A stretch of DNA of 37,204 nt from a virus. The stretch is taken from UHGV virus genome UHGV-0014568, one strand, 5' to 3'. This document shows, piece after piece, positions 16,000 through 32,402 of the stretch. The translations under genes and the position numbers were made by a program. The number at the start of each line of letters is the position of its first letter. The first letter of the stretch is position 1. The notes beneath the pieces are model-generated. The model had not been told where the DNA came from. It searched no databases and saw only the letters and a program-made list of their open reading frames with translations.

Positions 16000-16442
16000 G
16001 ATTTATCTCCCTTAAGCATGGCGGCGCGGCAGGCTTCATCAACCATAGCTTCTACGTTTTCGAGAAGTACGTAACTGTACTGCTGCCCGCTAACCCATTC
16101 TTTTCTGCGAGGTAATGCGCGTGGGTCCGCTACAATGGCTCGCAAACGTTCCAGAACAGCTGGTACTGCTGGCGCTGGCGTGGCAGTGTATAGCGCCGTT
16201 GTACCCATCGGCTTATGATTGCATTTCGGGCAAACGTCGTTCTCTCGCCAGTCCTCAATTGTTTCCCACCCGCAGCGACAACATTCGTAACTGATGTAGT
16301 CAGGTTCTGCCTCCAGCGATGCCAGAGCAATCCGTGCCAGCTCTTCCGCTTCTTCTGCTGGCAGTACAACGTTGCTACCAGGTCCGTATGTTTCGCGCCA
16401 CTGCTTGATTGTCAGCAGTCGCTCTTTGGTAATAGTGTTCAT
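15996..16442 (-). CDS. Zinc-ribbon protein, unknown function
   Basis: 148-aa ORF with CCRCG...CPKCNH motif; 4-nt overlaps with both neighbours. Confidence 0.4.
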   Translation of the reverse strand: MNTITKERLLTIKQWRETYGPGSNVVLPAEEAEELARIALASLEAEPDYISYECCRCGWETIEDWRENDVCPKCNHKPMGTTALYTATPAPAVPAVLERLRAIVADPRALPRRKEWVSGQQYSYVLLENVEAMVDEACRAAMLKGDKS

Positions 16443-16804
16443 GCCGTAGCCCCTTCTTGATATTTTTCAAACCAGAACACAACCGGGTCAGATTTCATTT
16501 CAACCAATCCCATACGAACCAGCGCCTTGCCTTTCCCGGACGCAAGGAATTCACGACGACCATCACTGATAATTCGCCGATAATCTTCCAGGCTACTGCA
16601 ATGCTTGTGCAGATTGCATGGGTGGCATGCCGGAACCATGTTGGATATATCGTCACGATCCTGGTGAAGCATATTTCCATCAAAACGAATGACCGGTTTT
16701 ACATGGTCTGCATGCCACTTTTCGCCAAGTTCGCAGCCGCAATAAGCGCAGCGACCACCAAACTTCATGCGCAGCTCTGCACGTTGTTTTTTCGTCAGTG
16801 CCAT
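16439..16804 (-). CDS. HNH endonuclease
   Basis: CAYCGCEL...HADHVKP...CHPCNLHKH motif set; ATG at 16804 with AAGGAAAG RBS preferred over the longer track ORF (start 16894). Confidence 0.7.
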   Translation of the reverse strand: MALTKKQRAELRMKFGGRCAYCGCELGEKWHADHVKPVIRFDGNMLHQDRDDISNMVPACHPCNLHKHCSSLEDYRRIISDGRREFLASGKGKALVRMGLVEMKSDPVVFWFEKYQEGATA

Positions 16805-16805
16805 A

Positions 16806-17024
16806 TCAGCTTTCCTTATATGGATTAATTTTATTGTGCAGTGTGTTGAACGGGGCCCATACCACGTCGTTATACAATTCAATAACTGGCTCAATTATTT
16901 TCCCGATTGCCCAGACAAAAATTAGCAGGGATATCGGTATCATCAACACGACAAACAGAATGAGAAACAGAAATTCTACAGCCCTGTTTTTTCGCGGATA
17001 TTTTTTTCTGAATAATGTGACCAT
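16806..17024 (-). CDS. Small single-pass membrane protein
   Basis: 72-aa ORF; basic N-terminus followed by hydrophobic stretch LFLILFVVLMIPISLLIFVWAIG. Confidence 0.35.
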   Translation of the reverse strand: MVTLFRKKYPRKNRAVEFLFLILFVVLMIPISLLIFVWAIGKIIEPVIELYNDVVWAPFNTLHNKINPYKES

Positions 17025-17157
17025 TCATTACCGCCCTTCCGGGCGGCCTCCTGATGTTCTGAGGGTACAGAAATCCCTCCGGTTAAGGATTTAATAAAAA
17101 TCACTTCTGATTTAAATTTTCAGTGTTTTGTTGTCATGTGGTTTATCGCCTTTATGC

Positions 17158-17463
17158 TTAAGCCTTATTTCTCAGCCATACACAAACAGGACCATCTTCA
17201 GTGTCATGAATGGAACCAATGAACCAGCCTTCACCTTCCGGGCGCTCCGGTTTCCAGGAGGCAATATCGGGACCATCCGCGTCCAGATTAAAATCATCTT
17301 CATCCATAGTTCTGATGGTCCATTGAAGATTATTTTCCTCCATCCATGCGTTAAACTCTTCCGTTGAAATAAGTTCTCTAGCATCACAGAATTTTTCATA
17401 TTCAGGATGCGTCCAGCAGCCATATTCATCACGTACTACTGGTATTTCTCTAATTTCATTCAT
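17158..17463 (-). CDS. Hypothetical acidic protein
   Basis: 101-aa ORF in the nin-like block; overlaps the upstream gene. Confidence 0.4.
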   Translation of the reverse strand: MNEIREIPVVRDEYGCWTHPEYEKFCDARELISTEEFNAWMEENNLQWTIRTMDEDDFNLDADGPDIASWKPERPEGEGWFIGSIHDTEDGPVCVWLRNKA

Positions 17464-17713
17464 TTCTGTTCCTCCACGTTTTCAGACTTTCACCACAGAA
17501 CGGGCAAAAACACATTGCAACACCACGACCGATATATTGGCCGGAGTGAATTTGAGCAATGTCTAAGCCTGGCTCGCCGGTGTTTATATTCACGCGTTCC
17601 GGGATAAATATGCCTTTACTCTTAAAGGTTGGATTTCCATATTCGAGAGATTTTGCCAAAGCCGCGCACGGTTCTATCTTGTTGCCATTAATTTGGCATT
17701 TTGACTCACTCAC
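17456..17713 (-). CDS. Hypothetical Cys-containing small protein
   Basis: 85-aa ORF with CFCPFCGE motif. Confidence 0.4.
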   Translation of the reverse strand: MSESKCQINGNKIEPCAALAKSLEYGNPTFKSKGIFIPERVNINTGEPGLDIAQIHSGQYIGRGVAMCFCPFCGESLKTWRNRNE

Positions 17714-18288
17714 TGGTTGCCTCCTTTGCGAAGCTGGGCGGCGAATTTCTGTGCCTCTTTCTGGATGAATAGCTTTTTGCTGAAGTTATGGTACTGACCG
17801 AACATCTCCACGCCCTGCGCCCGCAGTTCCGACAGGAAAGCGTCGGTGGCTGGGTGCTCTGTCTGGCTATGCATTGCCCATTCAGATAAGTACTCGAAGC
17901 AACGGCGAAACTCCTGCCAATCACTGCACATGTTTAGGTTTCCGCCTTCACACTCGAACTGGTAATTCTCTAAACGGTCTGCAAACGCTCTGCCATTCTC
18001 GATGGCACCAAGTGGAGTTTCAGACTTCAGCCAAGCATTCTCCGCAGCCAGCGCCGAAAACTTCTCGTGTGCCAACTTAACAGCCGCATCAGCCTGCTTA
18101 ATTGACTCAATCGCTTTCTGGTGGTCTTCGGCCAGCGCATTAGCACGCACCAGTTGCACTTCCAGTTGCGTTGCCAAATCGCTGATCAGCTTTGCCACAC
18201 TGCGCATATCAACGGCACCACATTCTGCTTTCAGTTCCGAAGCCATCTCATGCCCGGCGGAAACTAACCCTTTGATATTACTTTCCAT
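17710..18288 (-). CDS. Hypothetical helical protein
   Basis: 192-aa ORF with a helical, coiled-coil-like N-half; no recognised motif. Confidence 0.4.
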   Translation of the reverse strand: MESNIKGLVSAGHEMASELKAECGAVDMRSVAKLISDLATQLEVQLVRANALAEDHQKAIESIKQADAAVKLAHEKFSALAAENAWLKSETPLGAIENGRAFADRLENYQFECEGGNLNMCSDWQEFRRCFEYLSEWAMHSQTEHPATDAFLSELRAQGVEMFGQYHNFSKKLFIQKEAQKFAAQLRKGGNQ

Positions 18289-18349
18289 CTTTACCCTCGC
18301 TTATCCACATAACTTATTGATTACATTGATAACTAAAAAGATCGTCGAT

Positions 18350-18694
18350 TCAGAACTCTTCGATGTTCCAGCCGCCACCTGCTTTCTTTGGTTTAACCGT
18401 TACCCCGATGATTCGGAACGGATACTGATCTGCGGCGACTTTGGTTTTCACCCTGGCGTCGTCGGTCCAGAAACCTTTCACTTCGTGCAGTTCCATCTCG
18501 CCGGTGGCGAGCATCACAGCAAAATCGGGCGTATAGAACGTGTTGTCAGCTAACCGCAGCTTGATACCCTCAAATCGATACCAGACGATTTCTCCTGCAC
18601 GTTTACGCAGCTCAAGGTGCTGGCAATACGCAGATTCTGTTTTGTTCATCTGTCCTGTTTTGAGTCGACCAAGAGCCTGTATCTGTTTTCTCAT
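18350..18694 (-). CDS. Small PD-(D/E)XK-like (DUF1064/VRR-NUC-like) nuclease-fold protein
   Basis: 114-aa ORF with TPDF...ELHEVK...K arrangement typical of a minimal PD-(D/E)XK core; AGGGG RBS. Confidence 0.4.
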   Translation of the reverse strand: MRKQIQALGRLKTGQMNKTESAYCQHLELRKRAGEIVWYRFEGIKLRLADNTFYTPDFAVMLATGEMELHEVKGFWTDDARVKTKVAADQYPFRIIGVTVKPKKAGGGWNIEEF

Positions 18695-18697
18695 GAT

Positions 18698-18774
18698 TTA
18701 CCCCTAAGGTAATTAAAAACCACATAAGACACGAAATCAATAGATTTTAGAATATTTTATTACCTAACAGGTAA
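18698..18774. promoter_or_regulatory. Intergenic control region with two TTACC-N5-GGTAA palindromes
   Basis: TTACCCCTAAGGTAA (18698-18712) and TTACCTAACAGGTAA (18760-18774) flank an IHF-like AATCAATAGATTT and an AACCACATA motif, between the P-like gene and the nin-like genes. Confidence 0.5.
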
Positions 18775-18794
18775 TTATCGAAACGTAAAAAAAT

Positions 18795-18810
18795 GCGCTA
18801 TCGCGCTGGT
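18795..18810 (-). terminator. Weak terminator-like hairpin plus 7-U run after the P-like gene
   Basis: On the minus strand GCGC-GATA-GCGC followed by TTTTTTT; stem is only 4 bp. Confidence 0.3.
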
Positions 18811-18811
18811 A

Positions 18812-19612
18812 TTACTTGATAAATCCTGACGCCTTTCCCCGCCTGTATTCCTCCATCAGCCACTGCGCCGGTGTTATTCCCCCCAGGGTGGCGGCGTTAG
18901 GCATACACCCGAAACTTCGCCCTGGTGGATGGTAAACGTCTCTCCCTGTGTCCGGAGGCGTACTCATGGGTTCTGGCTTTGCCTGTATGCTGATCACCGG
19001 ATCGGGTATCTGCTGTCCGGAAGCCACCTTTTTCGCCCAATCATCGAGCAGCCTGCGCGCGTGTTTCTCAACCTCAATCTCGCTAAGCTGGCGCTGATAC
19101 ATTGCACGGCGGGTATCACATACGACCCAGTACATAACCGGATGCCGCCACGGGAATCTTTCGGGACCACCAGGATATAAACTTTTTTCCTTGCTGTACC
19201 GGTGAAACTCCGTCATCACATCGTCAATGGTGACGCCAAGAACCATCTTGCTGTCTTTGCACCACTTGATGAATTGCCCTGGCGACGGCCAGAACGGAGA
19301 ATCACTGGCGCGGGCGTGGCGCATACCAGCAGAAACCTGTTCACGGGTTCGGATCCCCCCTTCGGCAAACGCAGCAATCCACTGCTGTTTTGCAGCAACT
19401 TCCTGCTCTGGCGTCTTCAGGTTGGTTACCACTGCCGCCGGAAACAGTTGTTTCAACTGTTTGAAAAGGGCATCAACAAGCCTCTCTGCTGACATGTTCA
19501 CTACGTTGTCATTGTTGGTGTACTGATGCTCATAACCTGACATGCGAGAAAGGGCCTCTCCGTCACGGTTTTGTATTGCGGTAAAAACGTTGTTCACAAG
19601 AAATCCTCCCAT
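18812..19612 (-). CDS. Replication protein P-like helicase loader
   Basis: 266-aa ORF; segment QWIAAFAEGGIRTREQVSAGMRHARASDSPFWPSPGQFIKWCKD parallels lambda P (QWVLAFRENGITTMEQVNAGMRVARRQNRPFLPSPGQFVAWCRE) from memory. Confidence 0.7.
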   Translation of the reverse strand: MGGFLVNNVFTAIQNRDGEALSRMSGYEHQYTNNDNVVNMSAERLVDALFKQLKQLFPAAVVTNLKTPEQEVAAKQQWIAAFAEGGIRTREQVSAGMRHARASDSPFWPSPGQFIKWCKDSKMVLGVTIDDVMTEFHRYSKEKSLYPGGPERFPWRHPVMYWVVCDTRRAMYQRQLSEIEVEKHARRLLDDWAKKVASGQQIPDPVISIQAKPEPMSTPPDTGRDVYHPPGRSFGCMPNAATLGGITPAQWLMEEYRRGKASGFIK

Positions 19613-20457
19613 GCTTCAGGGCTGTTCCAGTGCGGAACGTTGTTATCAGGTAATGTTGATTGCTTCTGTCTGCTAATCTGCAGCCGCCTTGCCAGCTTCT
19701 GCTCCCACTGTGCCTGATGGTATGCCTTACCCTCAGCCATCCAGTAAATTCTGAACTCTGCAAGTTCCTGTGCCGTTGGCAGACTGTCCAGGTAGATCCC
19801 CTGCAATGAGCTTTTCCGAAGAAAGTCATCTGATGGCTGCCATTGTTCATGCATGACAAATTTGCCTAATTGCCCTGGCCCACCAGGAGGAACAAAGTTA
19901 TTCATCACGGCGTTGTTTGCGCCGGGGTCATGAGGCACAGAATTCCCGTTTTTTGTCCTGCTCTCCCTCTCTTGGTTAAATGACTGGTTATATGACTGGT
20001 TCTGGATCCCGTTTTTGGGATCATTCAACATCCCGTTTTTGGGATCATTCAACATCCCGTTTTTGGGATCATTCAACATCCCGTTTTTGGGATCATTCAA
20101 CATCCCGTTTTTGGGTATATTCCCGTTTTCGGTAACATTACCGTTTTCGGGTTCATTACCCCCTTCCCGGTTGCCTTTAATGTTCCCGTTTTTGGTTATA
20201 TTAAGAGAGAAAACCCGCACTCTTTTCGTCGCTCCCTTTCTCTCTCCGGTATCTGAAATAAGCCCCATTTTCATGAGCGATATAAGCCCGGCCTGCACGG
20301 TTTTTTTATTCAGGCAAGTGTCTTTAACGAGGCGTTCTATGCTGGGGTAGCAGAGGTTATATTCATCGGCTCTGTCAGCCATCGAGAGCAGTATGAGCTT
20401 TAATGATGAGCTGCCTGGATCTGTCTCCCAAGCCCAATCTGTTGCATGTCTGCTCAT
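19594..20457 (-). CDS. Replication initiator (O-like position) with DnaT-like C-terminal domain and internal iteron-encoded repeats
   Basis: 287-aa ORF; C-terminal GKFVMHEQWQPSDDF...YWMAEGKAYHQAQWEQKLARRLQ resembles E. coli DnaT; contains GMLNDPKN x4 encoded by the 24-bp iterons; GGAG RBS. Confidence 0.65.
   Translation of the reverse strand: MSRHATDWAWETDPGSSSLKLILLSMADRADEYNLCYPSIERLVKDTCLNKKTVQAGLISLMKMGLISDTGERKGATKRVRVFSLNITKNGNIKGNREGGNEPENGNVTENGNIPKNGMLNDPKNGMLNDPKNGMLNDPKNGMLNDPKNGIQNQSYNQSFNQERESRTKNGNSVPHDPGANNAVMNNFVPPGGPGQLGKFVMHEQWQPSDDFLRKSSLQGIYLDSLPTAQELAEFRIYWMAEGKAYHQAQWEQKLARRLQISRQKQSTLPDNNVPHWNSPEAWEDFL
20006..20101. repeat. Four perfect tandem 24-bp direct repeats (ATCCCGTTTTTGGGATCATTCAAC), probable replication-origin iterons
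   Basis: Exact head-to-tail copies at 20006, 20030, 20054 and 20078, followed by degenerate CCCGTTTT(C/T)GG copies to about 20215 and preceded by a TGACTGGTT x2 repeat; all inside the replication initiator gene. Confidence 0.7.
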
Positions 20458-21208: not shown

Positions 21209-21793
21209 ATGAAAAGTATCCAGGACGTCCGCAGGCAAAATCTCAACGACTTGATCGACCGTGAATTCAATGGTGTTCAGACGCGGATGGCAGAAAAACT
21301 TGGAACTCAGGCAAATCTGGTAAACCGCTGGGCTCTTGGCAAGAAGGTTATCGGCGACCAGGTTGCGCGAAAAATTGAAGCTGCCGCCAATAAACCCCGT
21401 AACTGGCTTGATATCGATCGCTCGCTTTCTCAAGAAGGTTTTCAGCCTGTCGGACCAAGCGACATTGGTCAGCTGGCGGCTCACAACCTGGAACGCTGGA
21501 TGAGCGAAAGCCGAGACCTTTCAACGCAGGGAAAACTTCACCGCGCATCCGGCGTCGCCCAGGTGACAATCAGCCGCCTGTTAAACAATGAGGTCAGCGT
21601 TTCCATTTCCACCCTGGAGAATGTTGCATCCGCATTCGGGCGTCACGGCTATGAATTACTGATTCACCCGCACGACCCTGCGACTATCAACTATGATCGC
21701 TCGCGCTACGCATTGTTACCTGAAACAGAGAAGGCAAAGATCGAAAGTTACATTGAATTTGTCATCAACCAGAACGAAAAAAGCAAACAATAA
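21209..21793 (+). CDS. Prophage repressor candidate (CI position) with two XRE-type HTH domains and no peptidase domain
   Basis: 194-aa ORF between the OR-like and OL-like regions, with its own terminator; two HTH-like segments (QTRMAEKLGTQANLVNRW and GVAQVTISRLLNNE); no Ser/Lys S24 autopeptidase motifs seen. Confidence 0.5.
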   Translation: MKSIQDVRRQNLNDLIDREFNGVQTRMAEKLGTQANLVNRWALGKKVIGDQVARKIEAAANKPRNWLDIDRSLSQEGFQPVGPSDIGQLAAHNLERWMSESRDLSTQGKLHRASGVAQVTISRLLNNEVSVSISTLENVASAFGRHGYELLIHPHDPATINYDRSRYALLPETEKAKIESYIEFVINQNEKSKQ

Positions 21794-21815
21794 AACTATA
21801 GTTTTCAGAAAGTAA

Positions 21816-21837
21816 GCCGCCTCATGGCGGCTTTTTT
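21816..21837 (+). terminator. Rho-independent terminator after the repressor gene
   Basis: GCCGCC-TCAT-GGCGGC followed by TTTTTT. Confidence 0.7.
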
Positions 21838-21850
21838 ATTGCCCATGAAA

Positions 21851-21927
21851 TTACCTTACGGGTAATTTTTTTAACTCATATCTATTGACAACAAACCAAA
21901 TACGCATAATTATTACCTAAACGGTAA
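21851..21927 (+). promoter_or_regulatory. OL/PL-like promoter with two TTACC-N5-GGTAA operators
   Basis: TTACCTTACGGGTAA (21851-21865), -35 TTGACA (21885-21890), CATAAT-like -10 region and TTACCTAAACGGTAA (21913-21927) just before the first gene of the plus-strand operon. Confidence 0.55.
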
Positions 21928-21946
21928 CAAGCCGAGGTAACAAGTT

Positions 21947-22099
21947 ATGCAGTGGAAAATCATCAACGGTTGGTACTGCGTTACTGCATGCGGATTCATG
22001 AGCTGGAAGTTCCGCACATTACAGGAAGGCATTAAGTGGGCTTTCGTCAGCAAAGAAGCTCGCGATGTGGCCAACGATAACGAGATATGGGAGGGCTGA
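21947..22099 (+). CDS. Small protein, first gene of the PL-like operon
   Basis: 50-aa ORF with GAGG RBS 8 nt upstream; below track cutoff; Trp/Cys-containing. Confidence 0.3.
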   Translation: MQWKIINGWYCVTACGFMSWKFRTLQEGIKWAFVSKEARDVANDNEIWEG

Positions 22100-22101
22100 T
22101 A

Positions 22102-22401
22102 ATGAACGTTAATCAGCAGAAAAATCTTCAAAAAATCATGCTGGCATTCGACAAGGACTACCGCCTGTCAGAACAGCTATATGACCGACAAGTTGAACTG
22201 ATTGAGAGCATCCGACTTCATCAACTGTCCTCAACTTTCGACGTTGTAACAGGCAAAGGCGTTCGTCAGGAAGTGCTGGAGGCAGCTAAAGACAGCCCTG
22301 AGTTCGAAGAACTTATGGATGCCTACCGGCGCGAGGCAATGGCAATTATCGCCCGCTGGGATCTGGCTGATCAGCTTGATGGGCAGAGGGACGCGGCATG
22401 A
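22102..22401 (+). CDS. Hypothetical protein upstream of the exonuclease
   Basis: 99 aa from ATG 22102 (track ORF starts at 22087); stop overlaps the exonuclease start. Confidence 0.4.
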   Translation: MNVNQQKNLQKIMLAFDKDYRLSEQLYDRQVELIESIRLHQLSSTFDVVTGKGVRQEVLEAAKDSPEFEELMDAYRREAMAIIARWDLADQLDGQRDAA

Positions 22402-23219
22402 AGCCGGGAATTTATTTCGACATCAGCAACGAAGACTACCACGCCGGTGACGGCGTGAGTAAGTCGCAACTGGACATGGTTGCCAAGAATCCGGCGCTTC
22501 TCAAATGGGTTCAGGCAGCACCAGAAGACGAAGAGAAAAAGTCTGCACTGGATATGGGAACCGCATTGCACTGTCTGCTTCTGGAACCTGGAGAATTCGA
22601 CAAACGCTTCATCGTTTCACCGAAATTCGATCGTCGGACAAAACAAGGTAAAGCTGACGAAGAAGCATTTCTTCGTGATGTGGCGGATATGGGTATTACG
22701 GTACTTGATGTCGAGCAGTGGCGAAAACTGGAGCTGATGCGTGATAGCGCAATGGCTCATCCGGCGGCACGCTGGATGCTGGAAGCACCTGGTTACTGCG
22801 AAGCATCAATGTACTGGAACGATGAAGATACGGGTGAGTTGTGCCGAATTCGTCCAGACAAATGGCTGAACGAGCACAACGTGATCGTCGACGTGAAAAA
22901 GGTTGCAGATATGGACCGTTTTGCACGCCACATCGAGGAATTCCGCTACCACGTGCAGGACGCAATGTACCGCGAAGGCGCAATGAGGGTTACTGGTCAG
23001 CCGCATGGTTTTTTCTTTCTTGCCGTGAGCGAAAGCATTGATTGTGGTCGGTATCCGGTACGCGTGTTCGAGCTGGATGCGCAGGATGTCGATGCCGGGC
23101 ACGCTCTGTTCCGCCGGGATCTGAATACCTATCACGAATGCCGCATCAATGATGAATGGGGTGGTGTGGAAATCATTAAACGCCCTGAGTGGGCACGCAA
23201 ACAGGATATGTACATATGA
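22398..23219 (+). CDS. PD-(D/E)XK exonuclease (RecE C-terminal-domain-like)
   Basis: 273-aa ORF; N-terminal YFDISNEDYHAGDGVSKSQLD and downstream D...IVDVKKV and YHVQDAMY motifs typical of phage RecE/YqaJ-type exonucleases; paired with RecT. Confidence 0.6.
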   Translation: MKPGIYFDISNEDYHAGDGVSKSQLDMVAKNPALLKWVQAAPEDEEKKSALDMGTALHCLLLEPGEFDKRFIVSPKFDRRTKQGKADEEAFLRDVADMGITVLDVEQWRKLELMRDSAMAHPAARWMLEAPGYCEASMYWNDEDTGELCRIRPDKWLNEHNVIVDVKKVADMDRFARHIEEFRYHVQDAMYREGAMRVTGQPHGFFFLAVSESIDCGRYPVRVFELDAQDVDAGHALFRRDLNTYHECRINDEWGGVEIIKRPEWARKQDMYI

Positions 23220-24157
23220 GCAACGACATCGCAAACATCAACGCACCAGTAGACACAGCAATCGCTGGAACTGCTGCAACTATTTTCAGCCCAGACGGCT
23301 TGAACCAACTGATGAAATTCGCCGAGGTAATGGCGCAAAGCCGCGTAACGGTACCGGCGCACCTCGCTGGGAAACCAGCTGATTGCATGGCCGTGGCAAT
23401 GCAGGCTGCGCAGTGGGGAATGAACCCGTTTGCCGTGGCTCAGAAAACCCATGTTGTGAACGGCACGCTAGGTTATGAAGCCCAATTAGTAAACGCAGTT
23501 ATCTCAACAATGTCGCCAACAAAAGATCGCATCAACTACGAGTGGTTCGGGCCGTGGGAACGCGTGATCGGTAAGTTTGTTGAGAAAACATCCAAAAACG
23601 GCAATCCGTATATCGCACCAGGCTGGACTCTAAAAGACGAAGAAGGTTGCGGTGTTCGCGTATGGGCAACCATGAAGGGCGAGGATCAACCTCGAGTGCT
23701 TGAGTTAATGCTGTCTCAAGCACAGGTAAGAAACTCCACACTTTGGGCCAGTGATCCGAAACAACAACTCGCATACCTTGCAACAAAACGCTGGTCTCGC
23801 TTGCACTGTCCTGACGTAATCATGGGCGTCTACACACCAGACGAATTACAGGAAACGGCACCGCGCGTTGAGCGAGACATTACTCCGCAAACGACCACTG
23901 CTGCGGGAATGAACAGTCTGATTAACGCTAAACAAGTGAAAAATCCTGATGAGCAAACGCGTAAAGCGGATAGCCGTGATCCAGAAGAAATGCTAATGGC
24001 CTTTACCAGCGCAGCGATGAATTACAGCACTGTCTCCGAACTGGATAAAGCTTACAAATACATTGCACAAAAACTTTCAGATGATGACGAACTGCTGGCA
24101 AAAGCCACCGACGTTTACAGCGTTCGTCGGGAAGAATTAAACGAAACATCTATGTAA
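23216..24157 (+). CDS. recT: RecT-family single-strand annealing protein
   Basis: ATG at 23216 overlaps the exonuclease stop (ATATGA) with an AGGA RBS; about 313 aa; the longer track ORF (23189) is an in-frame extension. Confidence 0.55.
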   Translation: MSNDIANINAPVDTAIAGTAATIFSPDGLNQLMKFAEVMAQSRVTVPAHLAGKPADCMAVAMQAAQWGMNPFAVAQKTHVVNGTLGYEAQLVNAVISTMSPTKDRINYEWFGPWERVIGKFVEKTSKNGNPYIAPGWTLKDEEGCGVRVWATMKGEDQPRVLELMLSQAQVRNSTLWASDPKQQLAYLATKRWSRLHCPDVIMGVYTPDELQETAPRVERDITPQTTTAAGMNSLINAKQVKNPDEQTRKADSRDPEEMLMAFTSAAMNYSTVSELDKAYKYIAQKLSDDDELLAKATDVYSVRREELNETSM

Positions 24158-24206
24158 CCACCACCGCGGCGCCACACGCGCCGCACTGCAACCAAGAGAG
24201 GTATTT

Positions 24207-24455
24207 ATGAAAGGTGCATTAGGTAAGAAGGAACTCCTGGCGGTGGTGCCACTGTCATGGAGCACTATCGACCGTATGGAGCGCGCAGGGGAATTTCCTA
24301 AACGCTGGTATATCACCGATAAACGCTGCGCATGGAACCGCGATGAAGTTGAGCGTTGGCTTGATGAACGTCAGGCAGCAAGCCCGGCAGAGTTCCAGGG
24401 TAAAAAACCTCCTGTTCAGCAACGTGTATATCGTCCTGTGAGCAACGCGGCATGA
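24207..24455 (+). CDS. AlpA-family small DNA-binding protein (regulator or excisionase candidate)
   Basis: 82-aa ORF with strong RBS; LLAVVPLSWSTIDRMERAGEFPKRWYI...W...EVERWL matches the AlpA/Xis pattern from memory. Confidence 0.5.
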   Translation: MKGALGKKELLAVVPLSWSTIDRMERAGEFPKRWYITDKRCAWNRDEVERWLDERQAASPAEFQGKKPPVQQRVYRPVSNAA

Positions 24456-24564
24456 GTGTGCTGCTAAGGCACTGGAGCAAATGGTCAGGATGGTACTTAT
24501 TCCTGGCCTCTGTTTCAGCATGGCTTTATCTGCTGGCATTAATTTTCAGAGAGGGTTGGATTAA

Positions 24565-24864
24565 GTGAGAAAGTTAAGCCGACTTGAAAAATATCACATG
24601 AACAAGGTTTCAATGCGCAGCCATTCAAAGGTTGTTGCCGTTACTCCTGCGGCGATAGAGATCGAAAAACGCGCGATTGAAAGAGAGAAAAAAGGGCAGT
24701 TCCGCATTGCCGCTCACCTTTGGCTTCAGTGTATGGATGTTGCTTCTGGTGATGTTGAGCGTGCAAGGATCGCGGTTCGCAGGGACCAATGTATCACAAA
24801 AGGTAACGGCCTTCGCCGTGGCGACTATAGCGGCATAGGATGTTGTGGGGTGGTTTATGACTAA
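24565..24864 (+). CDS. Small regulator-like protein, possibly PerC-family
   Basis: 99-aa ORF (GTG start with GAGGG RBS); family call from recollection of a G.FRIAAHLWL...RR.QC pattern; weak. Confidence 0.3.
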   Translation: MRKLSRLEKYHMNKVSMRSHSKVVAVTPAAIEIEKRAIEREKKGQFRIAAHLWLQCMDVASGDVERARIAVRRDQCITKGNGLRRGDYSGIGCCGVVYD

Positions 24865-25507
24865 GAAATACACACTAATCTATGCAGATCCACCCTGGGT
24901 ATACCGGGACAAAGCCGCAGATGGTAATCGCGGTGCCGGTTTTAAATATCCGGTTATGAGTGTGCTGGATATCTGCCGCCTTCCTGTGTGGTGTTTGGCC
25001 GATGAAAACTGTCTGTTGGCCATGTGGTGGGTGCCAACACAACCACTCGAAGCACTAAAAGTTGTTGAAGCCTGGGGATTCCGTCTGATGACCATGAAGG
25101 GATTCACGTGGATAAAATGTGGTAGTCGACAACCAGATAAACTGGTTATGGGTATGGGTCACATGACTCGCGCCAATAGTGAAGATTGCCTGTTTGCAGT
25201 AAAGGGAAAACTACCTCCGCGCATTAATGCAGGGATCGTTCAGTCATTTACCGCACCGCGGCTTGAGCATTCAAGAAAACCAGATGTCGTTCGTGAAAAA
25301 CTTGTGCAATTGTTAGGCGATGTTTCTCGCATTGAACTGTTCGCCCGCCAGTCGTCTCATGGCTTCGATGTTTGGGGTAATCAGTGCGAAGACCCGGCAG
25401 TGCAACTACACCCTGGATACGCGTTGGATATTGCCAGATTAACAAATGCATTCAGCAATGCTCCGCTGTCACCAACAGACAACCAGGGGCGGGAGCGTGC
25501 AGCATGA
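24857..25507 (+). CDS. MT-A70-family DNA N6-adenine methyltransferase
   Basis: About 216 aa from ATG 24857 with GGGGTGG RBS; catalytic DPPW motif in YADPPWVY near the N-terminus. Confidence 0.7.
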   Translation: MTKKYTLIYADPPWVYRDKAADGNRGAGFKYPVMSVLDICRLPVWCLADENCLLAMWWVPTQPLEALKVVEAWGFRLMTMKGFTWIKCGSRQPDKLVMGMGHMTRANSEDCLFAVKGKLPPRINAGIVQSFTAPRLEHSRKPDVVREKLVQLLGDVSRIELFARQSSHGFDVWGNQCEDPAVQLHPGYALDIARLTNAFSNAPLSPTDNQGRERAA

Positions 25508-25698
25508 ACCGGGCATCACCAGCAGATTTAAGGAAATGCCTTGAAACTGCAAACATGCTTGCACACAGCGGGATCAGGTTTGTTCCAATTCCCGCTGTCA
25601 CTGATGCTGAATTTGCAACACTGTCAGCAATATTCGCAGATAAAATTGAATCACTGGCAGCAGAAGCCGAGATGGAAGAAAATCAGCAGAATAATTAA
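25504..25698 (+). CDS. Small protein, possibly DUF1382-like
   Basis: 64 aa from ATG 25504 overlapping the methyltransferase stop (ATGA); the track's 104-aa version starts inside the upstream gene. Confidence 0.3.
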   Translation: MNRASPADLRKCLETANMLAHSGIRFVPIPAVTDAEFATLSAIFADKIESLAAEAEMEENQQNN

Positions 25699-25701: not shown

Positions 25702-26952
25702 TTATTCCCCCGCCATCCACTTCTCAAACTTCGACGGGGAGAACGGAATCAGATCCGTATGCTCCCCGTTAATCCAGGAATCAATCATATCGGCCCACTG
25801 CTGCAACATGTAGGCGCGCTGTCTGGCATATTCCGCTTTGTTATATACGGCGCGCACACCTTTCTGCTCATGTGCCAGAGCCTTTTCAATCCAGTCTGAA
25901 GGATAACCAGCCTCATGCAACAACGTACTGGCTGTACGGCGCATATCATGTACAGTGAAGTCCTGAATATGCTCACCATCTTCATTTATTATTTTCACCG
26001 TTCTGTCGATCAGAGAGTTCAGCGCGGCATTAGATAATGGCTTCCGGAAGTTGTAACGACCAGGAACCAGATATTCACTTCCACCAGCGCACATCTGCAA
26101 CCCGACCAATATATCCTGTGCCTGTTTAGGCAGGTAAATAACGTGCGCCCGGCTTCCCTTCATGCGGTCTGAAGGAATTGTCCATGTCCATTTTTTAAAA
26201 TCTATTTCGTCCCACGTTGCATTGGTGAATTCGCCTTTACGAACCATAGTGATAAGCACCAGTTTTAAAGCCATTTTCATAGTGCCCATAGCACCAATGG
26301 CATCCAACGTGCGGAAGAACAGGCCAATTTCTTCTGGTGTCAGTGTTCGCTCTCGTGGTTTAAATATGGCGATAGACGAAGGCTTAATGTCAGCCGCAGG
26401 ATTAAACAAACCATGACCACGGTCATTGGCGTGACGGTATACGCTGCTGATGATCTCCCTGGCCTGCACTGCTGTTGCCCGGCCACCGCGTTCGACAATC
26501 CGGTCACACAAATCACGAACCATCGATGTGGTAATTTCAGCCATCATTTTGTTGCCAAGAACCGGAAGTATGTCACGGTCGATCACTGCCTGCTTCATTG
26601 CGCGGGTACTTTCAGCCATGATGACGTGTTTCATATAACTGTCGGTATGTACCGCAAACGTCTCGGCACCACGAATCTTTTTGATACCGTCACGTTTAGC
26701 CGCAGCCGGCGACTGGCCTGCTTTAAGCAGCTTCTTTGCAGCAATCAGTTCTTCCCGCGCTTCTGCCAGGCTTATACCGTCACGCCCATACTGCCCGATT
26801 ACCAGTGTTTCGCGGCGACCGTTGATACGGTAGTCATAGCGAAACGAGACCGTACCTGACGTAAGCACAGCTACATACAGCCCGTCACGATCGGAGACTT
26901 TGTACAGTTTGTCCTGCGGCTTGAGGTTTTTCAATTTTGTATCGGTAAGCAC
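25702..26952 (-). CDS. int: Tyrosine integrase, P4-like family
   Basis: 416-aa ORF; N-terminus LTDTKLKNLKPQDKLYKVSDRDGLYV typical of P4-type integrases; C-terminal catalytic region with HDMRRT and Y-containing tail; GTG start. Confidence 0.85.
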   Translation of the reverse strand: MLTDTKLKNLKPQDKLYKVSDRDGLYVAVLTSGTVSFRYDYRINGRRETLVIGQYGRDGISLAEAREELIAAKKLLKAGQSPAAAKRDGIKKIRGAETFAVHTDSYMKHVIMAESTRAMKQAVIDRDILPVLGNKMMAEITTSMVRDLCDRIVERGGRATAVQAREIISSVYRHANDRGHGLFNPAADIKPSSIAIFKPRERTLTPEEIGLFFRTLDAIGAMGTMKMALKLVLITMVRKGEFTNATWDEIDFKKWTWTIPSDRMKGSRAHVIYLPKQAQDILVGLQMCAGGSEYLVPGRYNFRKPLSNAALNSLIDRTVKIINEDGEHIQDFTVHDMRRTASTLLHEAGYPSDWIEKALAHEQKGVRAVYNKAEYARQRAYMLQQWADMIDSWINGEHTDLIPFSPSKFEKWMAGE

Positions 26953-27269
26953 AATTCACCCGTATAGAAACCATTTTCATGACGGTATGAGAGTATACCT
27001 TTCGGGTAATACCGTCACCTATACCGTCGAAAAATGTGGTGTAGAGTGAATAGATATGAGTAGATATAAACAAAAACCCTCTGCAATTACAGAGGGTTAG
27101 GGAAGACATTGAATAGATATGATGTGCTATGAACTAGCTATACATCATTCCCACTCAATTATTTACGAAAGCCATAACCAATTGAGTGATAACATTTTTC
27201 CAAAACCTCATTTTTTTAGTACCGTTTTATATACCGTCACCGGAAATCAGTACCATGAAAAATGCCATG
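26953..27269. other. Candidate attP region with arm-type repeats
   Basis: TACCGTC core four times (26981-26987 inverted, 27010-27016, 27022-28, 27232-27238), (T)GAATAGATATGA twice (27048-27059, 27111-27122), in the gap between int and Rz. Confidence 0.35.
27064..27098 (-). terminator. Rho-independent terminator ending the lysis/late transcript
   Basis: 9-bp perfect stem AACCCTCTG/CAGAGGGTT with 6-nt loop, followed on the minus strand by TTTTTGTTTAT. Confidence 0.65.
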
Positions 27270-27752
27270 CTATCTTGTCAGGGTGTCATACTGTTTTTCG
27301 CAGACTCTTCCGGCTTCGGCTGCCCGGTCAGCATACTCTGCCAGTTGTCTGTTTCTCTCGAGAGATTTGCTGAGCACGTCGGCAAGCAAAACTCCGGTGT
27401 CTGCGGCTGACGTCCCAGCGCCGACAATGGCGTTATACTGCCTGAGCTGCTCACGGATGGCAAAGAGTTGTTGCTGCAACCTGCCAGCGCGAACGGCAGC
27501 ATCAAGAGCATCATTGCGCGCCTGGTCGATCCTCTGCTGAGCTTCACGTTCATTGGTCGCTTTCTCCCGTTCGTACTGCTTACGAATTCTCTCATCTTCA
27601 GCTTTGCGGTCTTCCTTAGCCTGCGCATACCCGGCGTCGTACTGACGACTGCCGTGTGCATTCCAGGCTACAACTCCTGATATTACCAGAACAGCAAGCA
27701 TCACCATGATAACCAACTGTTTCCAGTATGCTTTTGCGAATGCCCAGATCAT
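27270..27752 (-). CDS. Rz-like inner-membrane spanin
   Basis: 160-aa ORF overlapping the endolysin stop; N-terminal TM ([18 protein letters not shown]) then charged coiled-coil region. Confidence 0.6.
27278..27514 (-). CDS. Rz1-like outer-membrane lipoprotein spanin embedded in the +1 frame of Rz
   Basis: Signal peptide with lipobox ([13 protein letters not shown]), Pro-rich mature part; wholly inside the Rz gene. Confidence 0.5.
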   Translation of the reverse strand: MMLLMLPFALAGCSNNSLPSVSSSGSITPLSALGRQPQTPEFCLPTCSANLSRETDNWQSMLTGQPKPEESAKNSMTP

Positions 27753-28378
27753 ACCGCCAGCACCTTACTGGCAGTGATGTACCGCGCGCGCCGGTCGTCG
27801 ATGCCGTTCCGGCCACCATTGATAATCAGAGTTACACGTGCAATATCGCCGGTATACTTCATGCAACCTTTGCTGGAGAAGAACCACGCCGCGCTACGAG
27901 CCGCGTATTCGTCCTGCGCCAGCAGTTCAGGATTCTCCAGCAAGTCCACTTTCAAGCCGTTTCCGCAGTCACGATAGTTATTCAAACCGGTAATCTGGAT
28001 AAGTCCGCGACCTCGGTAATTCCAGCCATCACCAGGGGCATTGTTCCCCATGCGTTTGCTGTACACCAGATTGGCGATCGCTCTCTGGCGCTCAAGTGGC
28101 AACAGCGGTTCGCCTACGCGTCGCCCCAATGCGTTAGCCTGTCCCTGGGTGAGACGCCCAGCCCGAACGAAGTTAGCCAGTCCGGTGACGCTGTAGTTGA
28201 AATTTTCCTGCAACCGGGTGAAGCCCACAGACTCATGCCCGACCTGAGCAATAAACATTGCCTGATCTTCGGGTTTGCTTATTCCAAACTCTTTCATCGC
28301 TGAAGTTATATGCGAGAACCAGCGTGCAGCCAGTGCCTCGCTAATACCAGCAGCTCGCTGGAATTGTTTAATCTCCAT
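27749..28378 (-). CDS. Endolysin, glycoside hydrolase family 19-like
   Basis: 209-aa ORF with GAGG RBS; [16 protein letters not shown] motif typical of GH19-type lysins; no N-terminal signal-anchor. Confidence 0.7.
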
Positions 28379-28676
28379 ATTTAGACCTCGTTATTTTGAA
28401 AATCTGAACGACGTTACCGCGCGTTTTAATAACCGCAGCAAGCATGACAGCGTTGATAATGACCTCAGATAAATCCACAACCATTGGCGTGCGTAACCAG
28501 ATTGCATAAACAACACGAACAGGGATACTGGCCGCTGCAACAATCAGGAAATAAGCAAGCCACCCACCCCATCTCCTGTGTTGAGAACCGTTTCTCCGAA
28601 ATGTGGCAACTCGAACTGCTATACCGGCGCAAATAGCCGCATTGGTGATAAGCAAAAAAAGCTCATGAGTTACCAT
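28368..28676 (-). CDS. Holin (three predicted TM segments)
   Basis: 102-aa ORF immediately upstream of and overlapping the endolysin; three hydrophobic stretches; GGAG RBS. Confidence 0.5.
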
Positions 28677-29067
28677 CGTCTTTTCTCCCCGGAATTAACT
28701 CGCGTGGATTATCGGAACGGTGATAGAGCCAGATTCCAATTCGCACTGCGACGATTGCTGACACAAATGCACCGGCAGAGAAAACAATCCCTTTCTCGAA
28801 AGAATCCTGTGTGATTGTAGGGATCAGGCTGGCTATGCCGATAAGAATTGATGCTGCTGGTTTGTAGAATAGAAGTCCGCATAGAAAGCTAAGCATCGAC
28901 AAAAGCACGCGACGACGAATTGGATACTCTACCGCAGAGGTAACAAAAATTACCGCCCCAGACAAAGACCCCAAAGCAACCTCAGGAGGAACACCGGCCA
29001 CAACCGCAATAAAAGAACTAACACTAAGCCACTGATTTAAAGACTCACTTGTTAGTTGAACTGACAT
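28663..29067 (-). CDS. Multi-pass membrane protein of the lysis cassette (second holin or antiholin candidate)
   Basis: 133 aa from ATG 29067 with GGTGG RBS (track's longer ORF starts at 29157); several hydrophobic segments; overlaps the holin start. Confidence 0.4.
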   Translation of the reverse strand: MSVQLTSESLNQWLSVSSFIAVVAGVPPEVALGSLSGAVIFVTSAVEYPIRRRVLLSMLSFLCGLLFYKPAASILIGIASLIPTITQDSFEKGIVFSAGAFVSAIVAVRIGIWLYHRSDNPRELIPGRKDDGNS

Positions 29068-29168
29068 AAAAACCACCGTTTCATGTGCATGAAGAACCCA
29101 CTTATTTGTGAGTTCATCATACACAATAAACCATATGTGGTTAAACCATAAAGACAACTATCTTGTCT

Positions 29169-31907
29169 TTATTGGATAATATGGAACGAATTTTTAACAT
29201 GAATAGTAGCAGAATTATTACTATTATTAATTAAAGCGATCTTCCCGCCAGAATATCCGGGAACAGCCTGTTGAACAGTTCCGCCAGTAGTGGGTTTAAC
29301 TGTTATTGTAGGTACTGACCCTGCCAGGCCAGCTGTAAGCTTGACCTCACCTGTCACATCGCAAGTCAATGTGCCGACAACAGTAAGAGCGCCGAAAAGC
29401 ATTGTTGAAATCTCAATTCCAGTTGAAGTTCTCTTTGCAACAACTCCGCTTTGTGAAGTAGGTTTATAGTAAAAAATCACTCCACAGCCAACAGGAATTG
29501 ATGATAAAGCAACGTTTTGAACATTTGGTGATTTAGTTGCACCATACATATCAGGAGATTCATCATTAGCAGTTTCTGCCGCATACGACAATAACAAATC
29601 AGCTCTATCCCTTACCTGCCCATATACTCCTTTTATTGCATTTTCAGCAAGATACACTGAAGCGCTTTGCGAGCATGACTCTTTCAAATCTCCTCTAAAC
29701 AACAGCCCTGGTGGATATACTTTTGATGGCGTACCATCGTAAATAATCTCAATCTGATTAAGTCCTTTTTTAAGGGTTCCAAGGTGAGTGGTTAGTTTGT
29801 TTGTAAACGATGAGACGCCATTACTAGCGATATTACCAGAACTAAATGCTGTATTACGGATATCTTGTTGTCGGATAGAGATGGAGTTAGCGCGACCGTT
29901 TGCAACATATGTTGGGTTATACGGCTCAAAAACAACCAATGATATATCAGAAGTTTCACACCAGACAAAATATCGTATGGTTAAATTTTCAGTAGCTGGG
30001 TAAACCACGCCCCAGCCAGTTAGACCATTTAGATACGTGTCTCCACTCAACCGCTCCATACCAACGCTGTACGTGCTACCAGACGGGAAGCCAAATGGCT
30101 GGATATCATTATCAACTGTTGGTACGAAGTTATTCCCTTTTTTCGCAGTGTGGACTCTATACGGCATAACAGCCTTTGCTGCATATGCGCCGATATATTG
30201 ATGGCCCAGAGGAGCAAAATGCGTGCTATCAAAAGTGCCATCTGTCGGGCGCCGAGCAATATCTTCAAGCGTATAGCTTCCGAGGTCTCTGTACATCTCG
30301 GTTACTGGCTGAGAGAGATCGAGGAACTCTACCGCAGGGAACAGGCGTTCAATATGCTTCTTAATTGATGCTTCGAGAGCCGCCCATTGTGAGCCATTCT
30401 GGTTCATTGAAACAACGCAGACGGCACATCCGTAACCCCATGCTTTACGGATAAACTGCTCAAAACGGAATAAATACTGATCGAACCCTAACGTATCAAG
30501 TTGTCCGTTATCGTTAACGCCCATGGATATGAAGCAAACGTCTGGCGGCACGTTTCCGTATGCAGTGTTTTTGAAGAAGCCATGGTCAAAGTTACGATTC
30601 GCCCACCCGTCAATGAGTCGCTTTCCAGAAGATGCGCAGTTTTCAGCCTTAAATATGTAAGCACTATTTTTAGTAAATCGGTTAAGCCAGTCGGTAAATG
30701 TGCGAAACCAAGAACCTGAACCACCATTACTATTGTGATCGTAGTTAGTTGAAGATAGGTCACCATTAGAATCGGTTGGATTAGCTGACCATCCAGCACC
30801 GTATGCGCCGTCAGTGATTGAATCACCAACGATACCAACACGACATAGCGTATTGCGGCGAGCGAACTGGTTTATTACGTTGAATGCAGTGTATTTACTG
30901 CCATGAGTTGCCAATCCAACATCAAATATGTGCTCATTCCCCCATGGATCTCTGGTGAGAATTTTTCCTTCACCGATAAATTTTGTCACATCATCATCTG
31001 GCAGGAAATTGCAGCGTAGCTGAACATCCTTCGGAACATAAATTTGTCCAGTATAAGCGTATACTGCAGCGCGGTTATCTGTCTCGCTATCAATGACTAC
31101 CCCAGGAACATATTTCACGGCTAATGCATCATTGCGATATTTACCGTTGCTTAGCTCTGTCCTTAATACAGCATCACCTACACCTATCCATGCCCCTGGA
31201 CCAACACCACCAGTAGTGGTAGGAGTTGATCCAGGCGGAACTACTTTGGGCAGTGGCCCATCCCATCTGTAGTATTCGCCGTTGCTTTCCCAGAGAAGAA
31301 CATCGTTAAGATAGATGATGGTATTACCCAACTCAAAAGATTTCTTCGTGTTATAGCCATACAATCCATTTTCTAAGGTTTCAATAATGGTGCTAAGTAT
31401 GGTACTAAATTTTGCATAAAGATCATCAGTATATTTTTTTGTAGCAGCATCTTGGGGAAGAGATGGATCACGAAGATTTCTAATATAATTTGAAAGCGCG
31501 TCATAAAAAATTGCTACGTCATTTGGCTTTCTTAAAGCCAACTTATCATTTCTTAATGATTGTTGAATGAGCATAGTAAGTTTATCAAACGCATCCTCAT
31601 GTACCTCAGCGAAGAACTTACCCTGATTACGTAAATCCGTTTCCTGAGTAGCTGGTAGTTCTCGTGATATAGATATCTGATGACCGTTAGCCAACGCCTT
31701 CGAGAGAATTACATTACCGCCGTTGTACCCTCCCGCTCCGGTGACGATGTAATCTGTATCAAGAACCAGTACGTTTATATTCTCGCTAATGTCAACAACC
31801 TGTACTACCAGATCTGATTTTTTGAAGATCCTAAATTTGTAAGGGAATGTCGTCGTAACACCATTGCCAGTGTATTCGTTGTGGTTAACTTCGGTTGAGA
31901 CCGTCAT
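29169..31907 (-). CDS. Tailspike/tail fibre with T7-type N-terminal attachment domain and SGNH (GDSL) esterase domain
   Basis: About 912 aa from ATG 31907 with GGAGA RBS (track ORF starts at 31949); N-terminus VNHNEYTGNGVTTTFPYKF resembles podovirus fibre N-terminal domains; SGNH blocks GDSITDG (Ser codon at 30819-30821), GVNDNG and DSTHF. Confidence 0.7.
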   Translation of the reverse strand: MTVSTEVNHNEYTGNGVTTTFPYKFRIFKKSDLVVQVVDISENINVLVLDTDYIVTGAGGYNGGNVILSKALANGHQISISRELPATQETDLRNQGKFFAEVHEDAFDKLTMLIQQSLRNDKLALRKPNDVAIFYDALSNYIRNLRDPSLPQDAATKKYTDDLYAKFSTILSTIIETLENGLYGYNTKKSFELGNTIIYLNDVLLWESNGEYYRWDGPLPKVVPPGSTPTTTGGVGPGAWIGVGDAVLRTELSNGKYRNDALAVKYVPGVVIDSETDNRAAVYAYTGQIYVPKDVQLRCNFLPDDDVTKFIGEGKILTRDPWGNEHIFDVGLATHGSKYTAFNVINQFARRNTLCRVGIVGDSITDGAYGAGWSANPTDSNGDLSSTNYDHNSNGGSGSWFRTFTDWLNRFTKNSAYIFKAENCASSGKRLIDGWANRNFDHGFFKNTAYGNVPPDVCFISMGVNDNGQLDTLGFDQYLFRFEQFIRKAWGYGCAVCVVSMNQNGSQWAALEASIKKHIERLFPAVEFLDLSQPVTEMYRDLGSYTLEDIARRPTDGTFDSTHFAPLGHQYIGAYAAKAVMPYRVHTAKKGNNFVPTVDNDIQPFGFPSGSTYSVGMERLSGDTYLNGLTGWGVVYPATENLTIRYFVWCETSDISLVVFEPYNPTYVANGRANSISIRQQDIRNTAFSSGNIASNGVSSFTNKLTTHLGTLKKGLNQIEIIYDGTPSKVYPPGLLFRGDLKESCSQSASVYLAENAIKGVYGQVRDRADLLLSYAAETANDESPDMYGATKSPNVQNVALSSIPVGCGVIFYYKPTSQSGVVAKRTSTGIEISTMLFGALTVVGTLTCDVTGEVKLTAGLAGSVPTITVKPTTGGTVQQAVPGYSGGKIALINNSNNSATIHVKNSFHIIQ

Positions 31908-31961
31908 GTTAAATCTCCAGATAGTCGCAGCACCCGTTGCGCCGCACATCCGGTCATTCTA

Positions 31962-32026: not shown

Positions 32027-32063
32027 TTCGCAAAACGTGCTGGATAGCAAACAAATTATTTGA

Positions 32064-32083: not shown

Positions 32084-32102
32084 ATTGCATGGAGAAGATA
32101 AG

Positions 32103-32382: not shown

Positions 32383-32383
32383 T

Positions 32384-32395: not shown

Positions 32396-32402
32396 GCTCA
32401 CG

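Follow-up and report, generated by a model that had tools for sequence, protein, structure and literature searches.

The virus genome UHGV-0014568 (37,204 nucleotides, analysed at full length and referred to here as the window) carries a recombination module in which the genes for a RecE-type nuclease and a RecT annealing protein follow two small open reading frames (ORFs) of 50 and 99 amino acids, ORF50 and ORF99. The product of ORF99 most likely belongs, as a very divergent member, to the Gam superfamily of host-nuclease inhibitors, a reading that we hold with modest confidence and that rests on remote homology to lambda Gam and on the exchange of ORF99-type genes with GamL genes at a single slot. 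In weighing the evidence, homology and slot exchange have been placed above the abundance of Chi sites in the window, and it is the Chi result that keeps our confidence from rising further. We propose that phrog_856, the family of ORF99, represents a third sequence type of Gam-like inhibitor, in which the Gam core is combined with a different N-terminal helix.

An earlier note on this DNA had described a RecE-type exonuclease and RecT preceded in one operon by ORFs of 50 and 99 amino acids, and all four genes do lie where it placed them, on the + strand, with a promoter of their own and with starts that are coupled or overlap. It had also pointed out that the equivalent position in lambda holds Gam and Kil, in agreement with the lambda order kil-gam-bet-exo, and had named the two small genes as positional candidates for inhibitors of a host nuclease or of cell division.

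Remote similarity between ORF99 and lambda Gam

The case for homology comes from profile comparisons. When a profile built from 14 diverse members of the ORF99 family (A7) was searched against 177,635 PDB sequences, lambda Gam provided the top two matches (5mbv_A and 2uuz_A; expect value, E, 0.05), positions 30-87 of the profile aligning collinearly with positions 32-90 of GamS. Since Gam was the hypothesis held beforehand, single-target p-values apply; the SEN34 Gam has one of 2.5e-8 (20.4 bits), lambda Gam one of 1.7e-6. Reciprocally, a Gam hidden Markov model (HMM) scored all 14 ORF99 relatives at p-values between 4.8e-8 and 0.013, and of the 681 segments from a six-frame translation of the window it gave ORF99 the top rank. 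Composition-matched shuffling of GamS, repeated 20,000 times, never reached the true score of 16.0 (best shuffle, 14.3), and an hhalign comparison of the diverse profile with a four-sequence Gam alignment returned a probability of 61% (E 8e-5) over 54 columns, pairing ORF99 residues 33-86 with Gam 75-130. The scores between ORF99 and Gam are of the same order as those between Gam and GamL, two proteins accepted as sharing a fold (PMC12315714). Of the profile searches recommended in the earlier note, those with the diverse ORF99 profile find lambda Gam, and those with ORF50 matched nothing known.

ORF99 also resembles lambda Gam (GamS; PDB 2UUZ, 5MBV), an inhibitor of RecBCD, in more general respects. 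Both genes stand after a tiny gene and before the nuclease and annealing genes, and the two proteins are alike in length (99 amino acids for ORF99, 98 for GamS), in isoelectric point (pI; 4.71 and 4.7-5.0, respectively) and in a predicted all-helical structure with a long first helix, the helices of ORF99 being predicted at residues 3-50, 56-63 and 66-98. Their cores share the motif G-x-+-x-x-[IV]...[DE]-x-x-EF-[QE]-E. On the other hand, ORF99 partners RecE/RecT and not Exo/Bet, and differs from Gam in its N-terminal helix and in the Chi content of its phage, as considered below.

Both ORF50 and ORF99 are real genes under purifying selection, given that their synonymous sites have diverged almost to saturation and the encoded proteins remain conserved; for ORF99, the ratio of nonsynonymous to synonymous substitution (dN/dS) is about 0.1-0.4 across relatives. 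An upstream ATG at 22087 would extend ORF99 to 104 amino acids, and 99 is taken as the right length because homologues begin at the MN(V/I) position. Scans of both proteins against Pfam, PHROG and NCBIfam returned only the unnamed families phrog_898 (ORF50) and phrog_856 (ORF99), the latter labelled 'hypothetical' in all records examined; the record of Escherichia phage phiV10 likewise lists their counterparts, p39 and p38, as hypothetical. When 1.84 billion representative proteins were searched exhaustively with an HMM, only 32 relatives of ORF99 were recovered, all of about 100 amino acids and none with a fused domain or a named function. Homologues of ORF50 and ORF99 occur in Enterobacterales only, and in the phage collection the two genes are found in exactly the same 36 epsilon15-like records. 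Literature searches found no published study of epsilon15 gp36/gp37 or of phiV10 p38/p39.

Exchange of ORF99-type genes and GamL upstream of the recombinase genes

The second line of evidence is positional. Two Hafnia-type relatives of the module, the loci L015 and L016, share 97-98% DNA identity on both flanks and an identical ORF50. In L016, ORF50 and the nuclease gene are separated by a phrog_1376 gene of 326 amino acids and, directly upstream of the nuclease, by a gene for a 94-amino-acid protein recorded as PF28165 GamL, which matches, in 127 phage records, genes that bear the annotation GamL or gam-like host nuclease inhibitor. The same slot in L015 holds a divergent ORF99-like protein of 94 amino acids (p 9e-5 to the ORF99 profile), and in a third locus, L007, the arrangement is that of L016 except that GamL gives way to an ORF99 relative. 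Because of these swaps, ORF99-type genes and GamL are regarded as interchangeable at one slot. Elsewhere, GamL precedes RecT in KO-TP1, CobraSix and PA2, and Gam or GamL precedes RecT or Bet in other phages, often with Kil in front.

GamL (phi80-type phages; PF28165, phrog_1050) is a second sequence type of anti-RecBCD protein. Like ORF99 it is acidic, has a similar length (93-96 against 99 amino acids) and lies directly before RecT or a RecE-type nuclease. The two differ in the part of Gam that they recall, since GamL is like Gam in the N-terminal helix and ORF99 in the C-terminal core. Compared directly with an alignment of six GamL proteins, ORF99 showed no similarity (hhalign probability 0.3-0.5%, HMM scores of at most 4 bits). 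The copy of Pfam used here did not contain PF28165 and left a true GamL protein unmatched, so that silence of Pfam on GamL is uninformative.

Relatives of ORF99 are found directly upstream of three types of partner, namely DUF3799 nucleases, YqaJ nucleases and RecT. The lambdoid prophage locus L008 has the order KilR, ORF99-like gene, DUF3799 nuclease and RecT, with KilR in the place of ORF50; in L009 and in epsilon15 the ORF99 type precedes a nuclease of the YqaJ/lambda-Exo type, and in L006 an ORF99 relative stands directly before RecT. Between epsilon15 and Enterobacter phage Tyrion, identity is 94% for ORF50 and 83% for ORF99 as against 11% for the nuclease and 22% for RecT, and between the window and Tyrion it is 92% for the nuclease as against 46% for ORF99. 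Since ORF99 does not co-vary with the type of nuclease or RecT, a phage recombinase is an unlikely target of the protein, and a host or DNA target is favoured. The possibility that ORF99 is a nuclease-specific subunit was considered and rejected, as ORF99 types and nuclease/RecT types assort independently.

Two observations on the composition of these loci may be added. In epsilon15, the region 30081-32012 that corresponds to 22398-24157 of the window encodes a nuclease of 299 amino acids of the YqaJ/lambda-Exo type (12% identity) and a RecT with 24% identity, so that the nuclease and RecT genes have been exchanged together, as one clean module, in the interval from ORF99 to the AlpA-like gene. 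The genes found between ORF50 and the nuclease are also variable, and include phrog_1376, a charged coiled-coil protein of 326-330 amino acids (L007 264-1244, L016 3249-4229, L020 5147-6139), phrog_6396, of 57-62 amino acids (L018 5119-5307, L020 6148-6321), and phrog_2201, of 84 amino acids (L012 3943-4197).

Evidence weighing against a Gam-type inhibitor

Several results run counter to the assignment of ORF99 to the Gam superfamily, or to a complete inhibitor of RecBCD, and they are gathered here. ORF99 fell short of the family thresholds: Pfam gave no match even with E values of up to 10 admitted, and PHROG gave no Gam family with E values of up to 0.1. Single-sequence searches did not find Gam, nor did a search of the PDB with a narrow ORF99 profile (A3), which returned nothing relevant. 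Moreover, the ORF99 HMM also matches lambda orf63, an unrelated small protein, with a p-value of 5.7e-5 (9.6 bits), from which it follows that the p-values of this HMM are perhaps somewhat liberal. This match could reflect chance or a distant link, and in either case it serves as a warning on the calibration of the profile. The orf63 protein (lambda locus 6-197) is a DUF1382 protein encoded just downstream of exo, and the window has a DUF1382 gene of its own.

The structural evidence gives little help. The predicted structure of ORF99 is a poor model (predicted local distance difference test score, pLDDT, 66), and three fold searches were uninformative. A further difference from Gam concerns the N-terminal helix MNAY..DRIE..W, which is common to Gam and GamL (hhalign 92%, 25 columns) and which, in the cryo-electron microscopy structure of RecBCD-Gam, enters the ssDNA (single-stranded DNA) channel of RecB (PMC5218532). 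This motif is absent from ORF99, whose first 30 residues do not align with Gam. Judged by its sequence, ORF99 is thus not a strict member of Gam or GamL, since the family models are unmatched and the N-terminal motif is missing.

The most serious objection is provided by Chi. The window contains eight Chi sites (GCTGGTGG), all on the - strand and none on the other, against an expectation of 1.35 from dinucleotide shuffles and of 2.4 from codon shuffles (0/1000 of which reach eight). The same polarity is seen in related phages, with six sites on the top strand and none on the bottom strand in epsilon15, and at least eight and none, respectively, in phiV10. Among lambdoid phages, 18/25 Rec modules without an anti-RecBCD gene are Chi-rich, compared to 24/202 of those with an inhibitor, so that most phages of this group that carry an anti-RecBCD gene have few Chi sites, unlike the phage that carries ORF99 (PMC12315714). 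Set against these frequencies, the Chi richness of the window would weigh against a complete inhibitor by a likelihood ratio of about six; it leaves room for one that is partial or differently targeted. Chi enrichment of this strength, with all sites in one orientation, would not be expected of a genome that has a putative RecBCD inhibitor gene. As to the earlier suggestion that the 99-amino-acid protein inhibits a host nuclease, the profile similarity to Gam, the GamS-like length and acidity and the slot swap with GamL speak for it, whereas a complete block of RecBCD sits poorly with the Chi enrichment.

Alternative roles for ORF99

A different explanation is that ORF99 is no inhibitor of a host nuclease but an accessory recombination factor, acting on DNA with RecT or the exonuclease (in loading, SSB bridging or end protection, for example), as Arf and Abc1 serve P22 Erf. 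The Chi-rich genomes would be expected if RecBCD stays active (PMC12315714), and P22 Arf and Abc1 provide a precedent for small helpers in the same kind of module. The constant position of ORF99 immediately upstream of a recombination gene, with frequent overlap of the start, points the same way, yet in some cases small genes intervene between ORF99 and the nuclease gene. A dedicated helper is also hard to reconcile with the fact that the 83%-identical ORF99 proteins of epsilon15 and Tyrion stand beside unrelated nuclease/RecT pairs, and the sole detectable similarity of ORF99 is to Gam, with GamL replacing it in relatives. P22 Abc2, Abc1 and Arf are comparable to ORF99 as small recombination-module proteins that alter RecBCD or aid recombination, but direct comparisons with the three revealed no similarity, Abc1 and Abc2 are encoded downstream of erf, and Arf is much smaller. 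We consider an accessory role unlikely.

Less probable still is that ORF50, ORF99 or both are early host-takeover or anti-defence genes, for example restriction inhibitors, which are unrelated to recombination and have simply gathered in the early-left operon. Both families are small, narrow (Enterobacterales only) and unannotated, their slot is a hotspot for other genes (phrog_1376, phrog_2201, phrog_6396), and a 2026 preprint casts recombination loci as reservoirs of anti-immunity genes. Nevertheless, ORF99 is tied to recombinase genes across four different phage backbones, and its similarity to Gam is specific.

ORF50

ORF50 shows strong constraint on its protein. Between the window and Tyrion, the proportion of synonymous differences (pS) is 0.67 and that of nonsynonymous differences (pN) 0.07, giving a dN/dS of 0.04 (range among comparisons, 0.04-0.3), and codons 1-35 give a pS of 0.70 and a pN of 0.05. 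Conservation of the N-terminal part as an RNA or DNA element was rejected, because it is the amino acid sequence that is kept there and the synonymous positions are nearly saturated with changes. Five residues of the protein are tryptophans; residues 1-36 form a conserved core with the invariant pattern MQW..NGWYCVTACG.M..K...L, and the tail is variable. We suspect from the core pattern a beta-hairpin followed by a helix; this is our own reading, and the AlphaFold model, a single helix with a pLDDT of 56 that was judged unreliable, does not show it. In Tyrion, an intact and unannotated ORF50 homologue (84% identical) lies at about 3501-3650, where the record calls gp39 on the opposite strand.

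In Uetakevirus-type immunity regions ORF50 is always the first gene after the promoter, and in some relatives it is separated from ORF99 by inserted genes (phrog_1376, phrog_6396). As an identical ORF50 precedes either GamL or an ORF99-like gene, it is not an obligate partner of ORF99. It is tied to the type of immunity region and not to the recombinase genes.

A Kil-type role, that is, transient inhibition of cell division, is suggested by position and can be offered as a tentative guess. ORF50 is close in size to lambda Kil (47 amino acids) and Rac KilR (PF27398), both inhibitors of the FtsZ ring, and like them it stands before a Gam-type gene; parallels for this arrangement are lambda kil-gam, Kil-GamL-RecT in the Klebsiella phage KO-TP1, and KilR-ORF99-like-nuclease-RecT in L008. 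Position is where the parallel stops: no further evidence for such a role was found, ORF50 is rich in tryptophan, and comparisons with lambda Kil, P22 Kil and KilR gave hhalign probabilities below 1% and HMM p-values of 0.02 or worse. Likewise, no similarity was detected to cIII, Arf or Ral, the ORF50 profile produced only chance matches in the PDB (mucolipin and putidaredoxin), and the nearest resemblance, to phrog_6396 proteins, is very weak (p 0.0065). What supports the earlier idea of a division inhibitor is the Kil/KilR slot seen in L008 and KO-TP1. It is quite improbable that ORF50 is instead a lysis-lysogeny regulator (a cIII-like protease inhibitor, an anti-repressor or a small transcription factor), for in spite of its linkage to the Uetakevirus repressor/operator/promoter unit rather than to the recombinase, its absence where ORF99 relatives sit in a lambdoid background and its better conservation than that of its neighbours (79% to epsilon15, against 50% for ORF99), it has no cIII similarity, no helix-turn-helix (HTH) or other DNA-binding signature and no arginine-rich motif, and the operon contains no intrinsic terminators that would call for antitermination.

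Possible mechanism and implications

A working model can be outlined as follows. Once repression is lifted, a single transcript from the early-left promoter would carry ORF50, ORF99, the RecE-type exonuclease and RecT, with genes for excision and a methylase behind them. Single-strand-annealing recombination on phage DNA ends would be the task of RecE and RecT, as expected from knowledge of the two families. ORF99, as a small, acidic, helical protein, probably a dimer, that is synthesised immediately ahead of the recombinases, would bind the host double-strand-end nuclease, most probably RecBCD, and in this manner spare linear and rolling-circle phage DNA, as well as the substrate ends of RecE/RecT, from degradation. 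It retains the segment that in Gam makes up the globular DNA-mimic core and has an N-terminal helix other than the RecB-channel plug of Gam and GamL, so that it may bind in another way or block less completely. For ORF50, the best guess from its position is that it acts early on the host in the manner of Kil. In a more elaborate version, to which we give little credence, ORF99 would be a Gam descendant devoid of the RecB-plugging helix that modulates or redirects RecBCD without blocking it, or targets a different end-processing nuclease, for instance SbcCD, with ORF50 as a new small host inhibitor alongside; if ORF99 does modulate or redirect RecBCD, or targets another nuclease, Chi-rich epsilon15-type phages could use RecBCD-Chi recombination and their own RecE/RecT together.

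The current classification counts RecE/RecT modules of the kind found in Gifsy-1 among those without an anti-RecBCD gene (PMC12315714), and a 2026 preprint argues that further RecBCD inhibitors hide in recombination loci and describes assays suited to a candidate such as ORF99. If ORF99 is indeed a third Gam-like type, phages of the epsilon15/phiV10 type would have a complete three-part module like lambda Red, and a compact native inhibitor-RecE-RecT cassette would be at hand for recombineering in E. coli, Salmonella, Klebsiella and Enterobacter. A further consequence would be that a Gam core can be joined to another N-terminal helix, which bears on the evolution of DNA-mimic inhibitors and on which phage proteins trigger defences that guard RecBCD, such as OLD and retron Ec48.

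The RecE-domain nuclease and RecT

The RecE-domain/RecT pair itself is ordinary and has been annotated already. The nuclease matches positions 606-873 of the 877 of the NCBIfam exodeoxyribonuclease VIII model NF007259 (E 5.6e-92), with a score of 309 bits that is far under the equivalog cut-off of 1269, and it belongs to PF12684 (DUF3799, PD-(D/E)XK). As the model match is restricted to that segment, the protein consists of the C-terminal nuclease domain of RecE only, without the N-terminal region of roughly 600 amino acids; the label 'RecE-type' used before holds for this domain and not for the architecture of full-length RecE. RecT scores 151 bits against PF03837 (cut-off 24); its listed start is a GTG at 23189, and a further start codon, the ATG at 23216, lies across the nuclease stop in an ATGA overlap. 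The pair shares with Rac prophage RecE/RecT the order of a RecE C-terminal catalytic domain followed by a RecT-family annealing protein, and differs from it in the length of the nuclease (273 amino acids, against 877 positions in the full-length RecE model) and in being preceded by ORF50 and ORF99.

The RecE-RecT 'fusion protein' annotated in phiV10 is accounted for by one extra A in an A-run (AAAA against AAA), 17 bp before the nuclease stop (phiV10 about 5397-5401, window 23198-23201). In the window, Tyrion and BUCT554 the nuclease and RecT are two genes with an ATGA overlap, and what lies behind the phiV10 fusion may be an error in sequencing or a frameshift of recent date.

Operon organisation and control signals

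The window is a phage genome of the phiV10/epsilon15 type (Uetakevirus), a temperate podovirus type, and its positions 21800-24200 are 97.7% identical to phiV10, the same block being present in 36 phage records. The features of the region, together with the Chi sites, are listed in Table 1. The genes of the operon are adjacent or overlap end to start, the ORF99/nuclease and nuclease/RecT stop-start overlaps both being ATGA, and no intrinsic terminators were found inside it. The window holds 13 copies of the palindrome TTACC-N5-GGTAA where 0.5 would be expected, and the epsilon15 record annotates repressor sites at places equivalent to the palindromes of the window; because of this excess and this annotation, the region is regarded as a repressor-controlled early-left operon.

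Table 1. Coordinates of the recombination operon, its control signals, neighbouring genes and Chi sites in the window
Feature	Position	Strand	Remarks
Immunity repressor, two HTH domains	21209..21793	+	PF01381 HTH_3 and phrog_8; counterpart of phiV10p40 / epsilon15 gp38; upstream of operon
Intrinsic terminator closing repressor transcript	21814..21833	+	8-pair GC-rich stem, then T run; terminator in phiV10 annotation too
Operator-like palindrome TTACCTTACGGGTAA, upstream of -35 hexamer	21851..21865		TTACC-N5-GGTAA, perfect
Sigma-70 promoter TTGACA-17-AATTAT, early-left (recombination) operon	21885..21913	+	10/12 consensus matches
Operator-like palindrome TTACCTAAACGGTAA, abutting -10 hexamer and likely transcript start	21913..21927		TTACC-N5-GGTAA, perfect
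ORF50, 50 amino acids, Trp-rich, phrog_898	21947..22099	+	phrog_898 E 1.9e-38; GAGG 9 nt before ATG
ORF99, 99 amino acids, acidic, predicted all-helical, phrog_856	22102..22401	+	Proposed divergent Gam-type host-nuclease (RecBCD) inhibitor
RecE-type nuclease, 273 amino acids, C-terminal PD-(D/E)XK domain only	22398..23219	+	PF12684 E 5.9e-22; phrog_412 exonuclease VIII E 8.6e-126; NF007259
RecT single-strand annealing protein, 313 amino acids	23216..24157	+	PF03837 E 3e-44; phrog_561
AlpA/excisionase-like gene	24207-24455	+	Same early-left operon
Small ORF	24452-24568	+	Same early-left operon
PerC-like gene	24565-24864	+	Same early-left operon
MT-A70 methylase	24845-25507	+	Same early-left operon
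DUF1382 protein gene	25504-25698	+	Last gene of early-left operon
Integrase, converging on operon	25702-26952	-	
Chi GCTGGTGG	4764, 8232, 12767, 26081, 33070, 34444, 36276, 36691	-	

The palindrome sites include 11719, 14846, 14864, 18698, 18760, 21091, 21139, 21851 and 21913. They are found at both early promoters and also as distant pairs in the replication and late regions, the repressor sites of epsilon15 being likewise scattered, and repressor control may be wider than the immunity region.

As for the genome as a whole, the possibility that positions 27000-37204 of the window represent host DNA beside a prophage was rejected, since the spacing of Chi sites there (1374, 1832 and 415) mirrors that of phiV10 15190-18811. 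The window is a nearly complete phage genome, reverse-oriented and permuted, with the attachment region near 27000. Finally, a perfect 24-bp tandem repeat of 4.6 copies (20006-20115) lies inside the replication initiator gene on the - strand (19594-20457), where it encodes NGMLNDPK repeats, and looks like origin iterons embedded in an initiator gene, as in lambda O.

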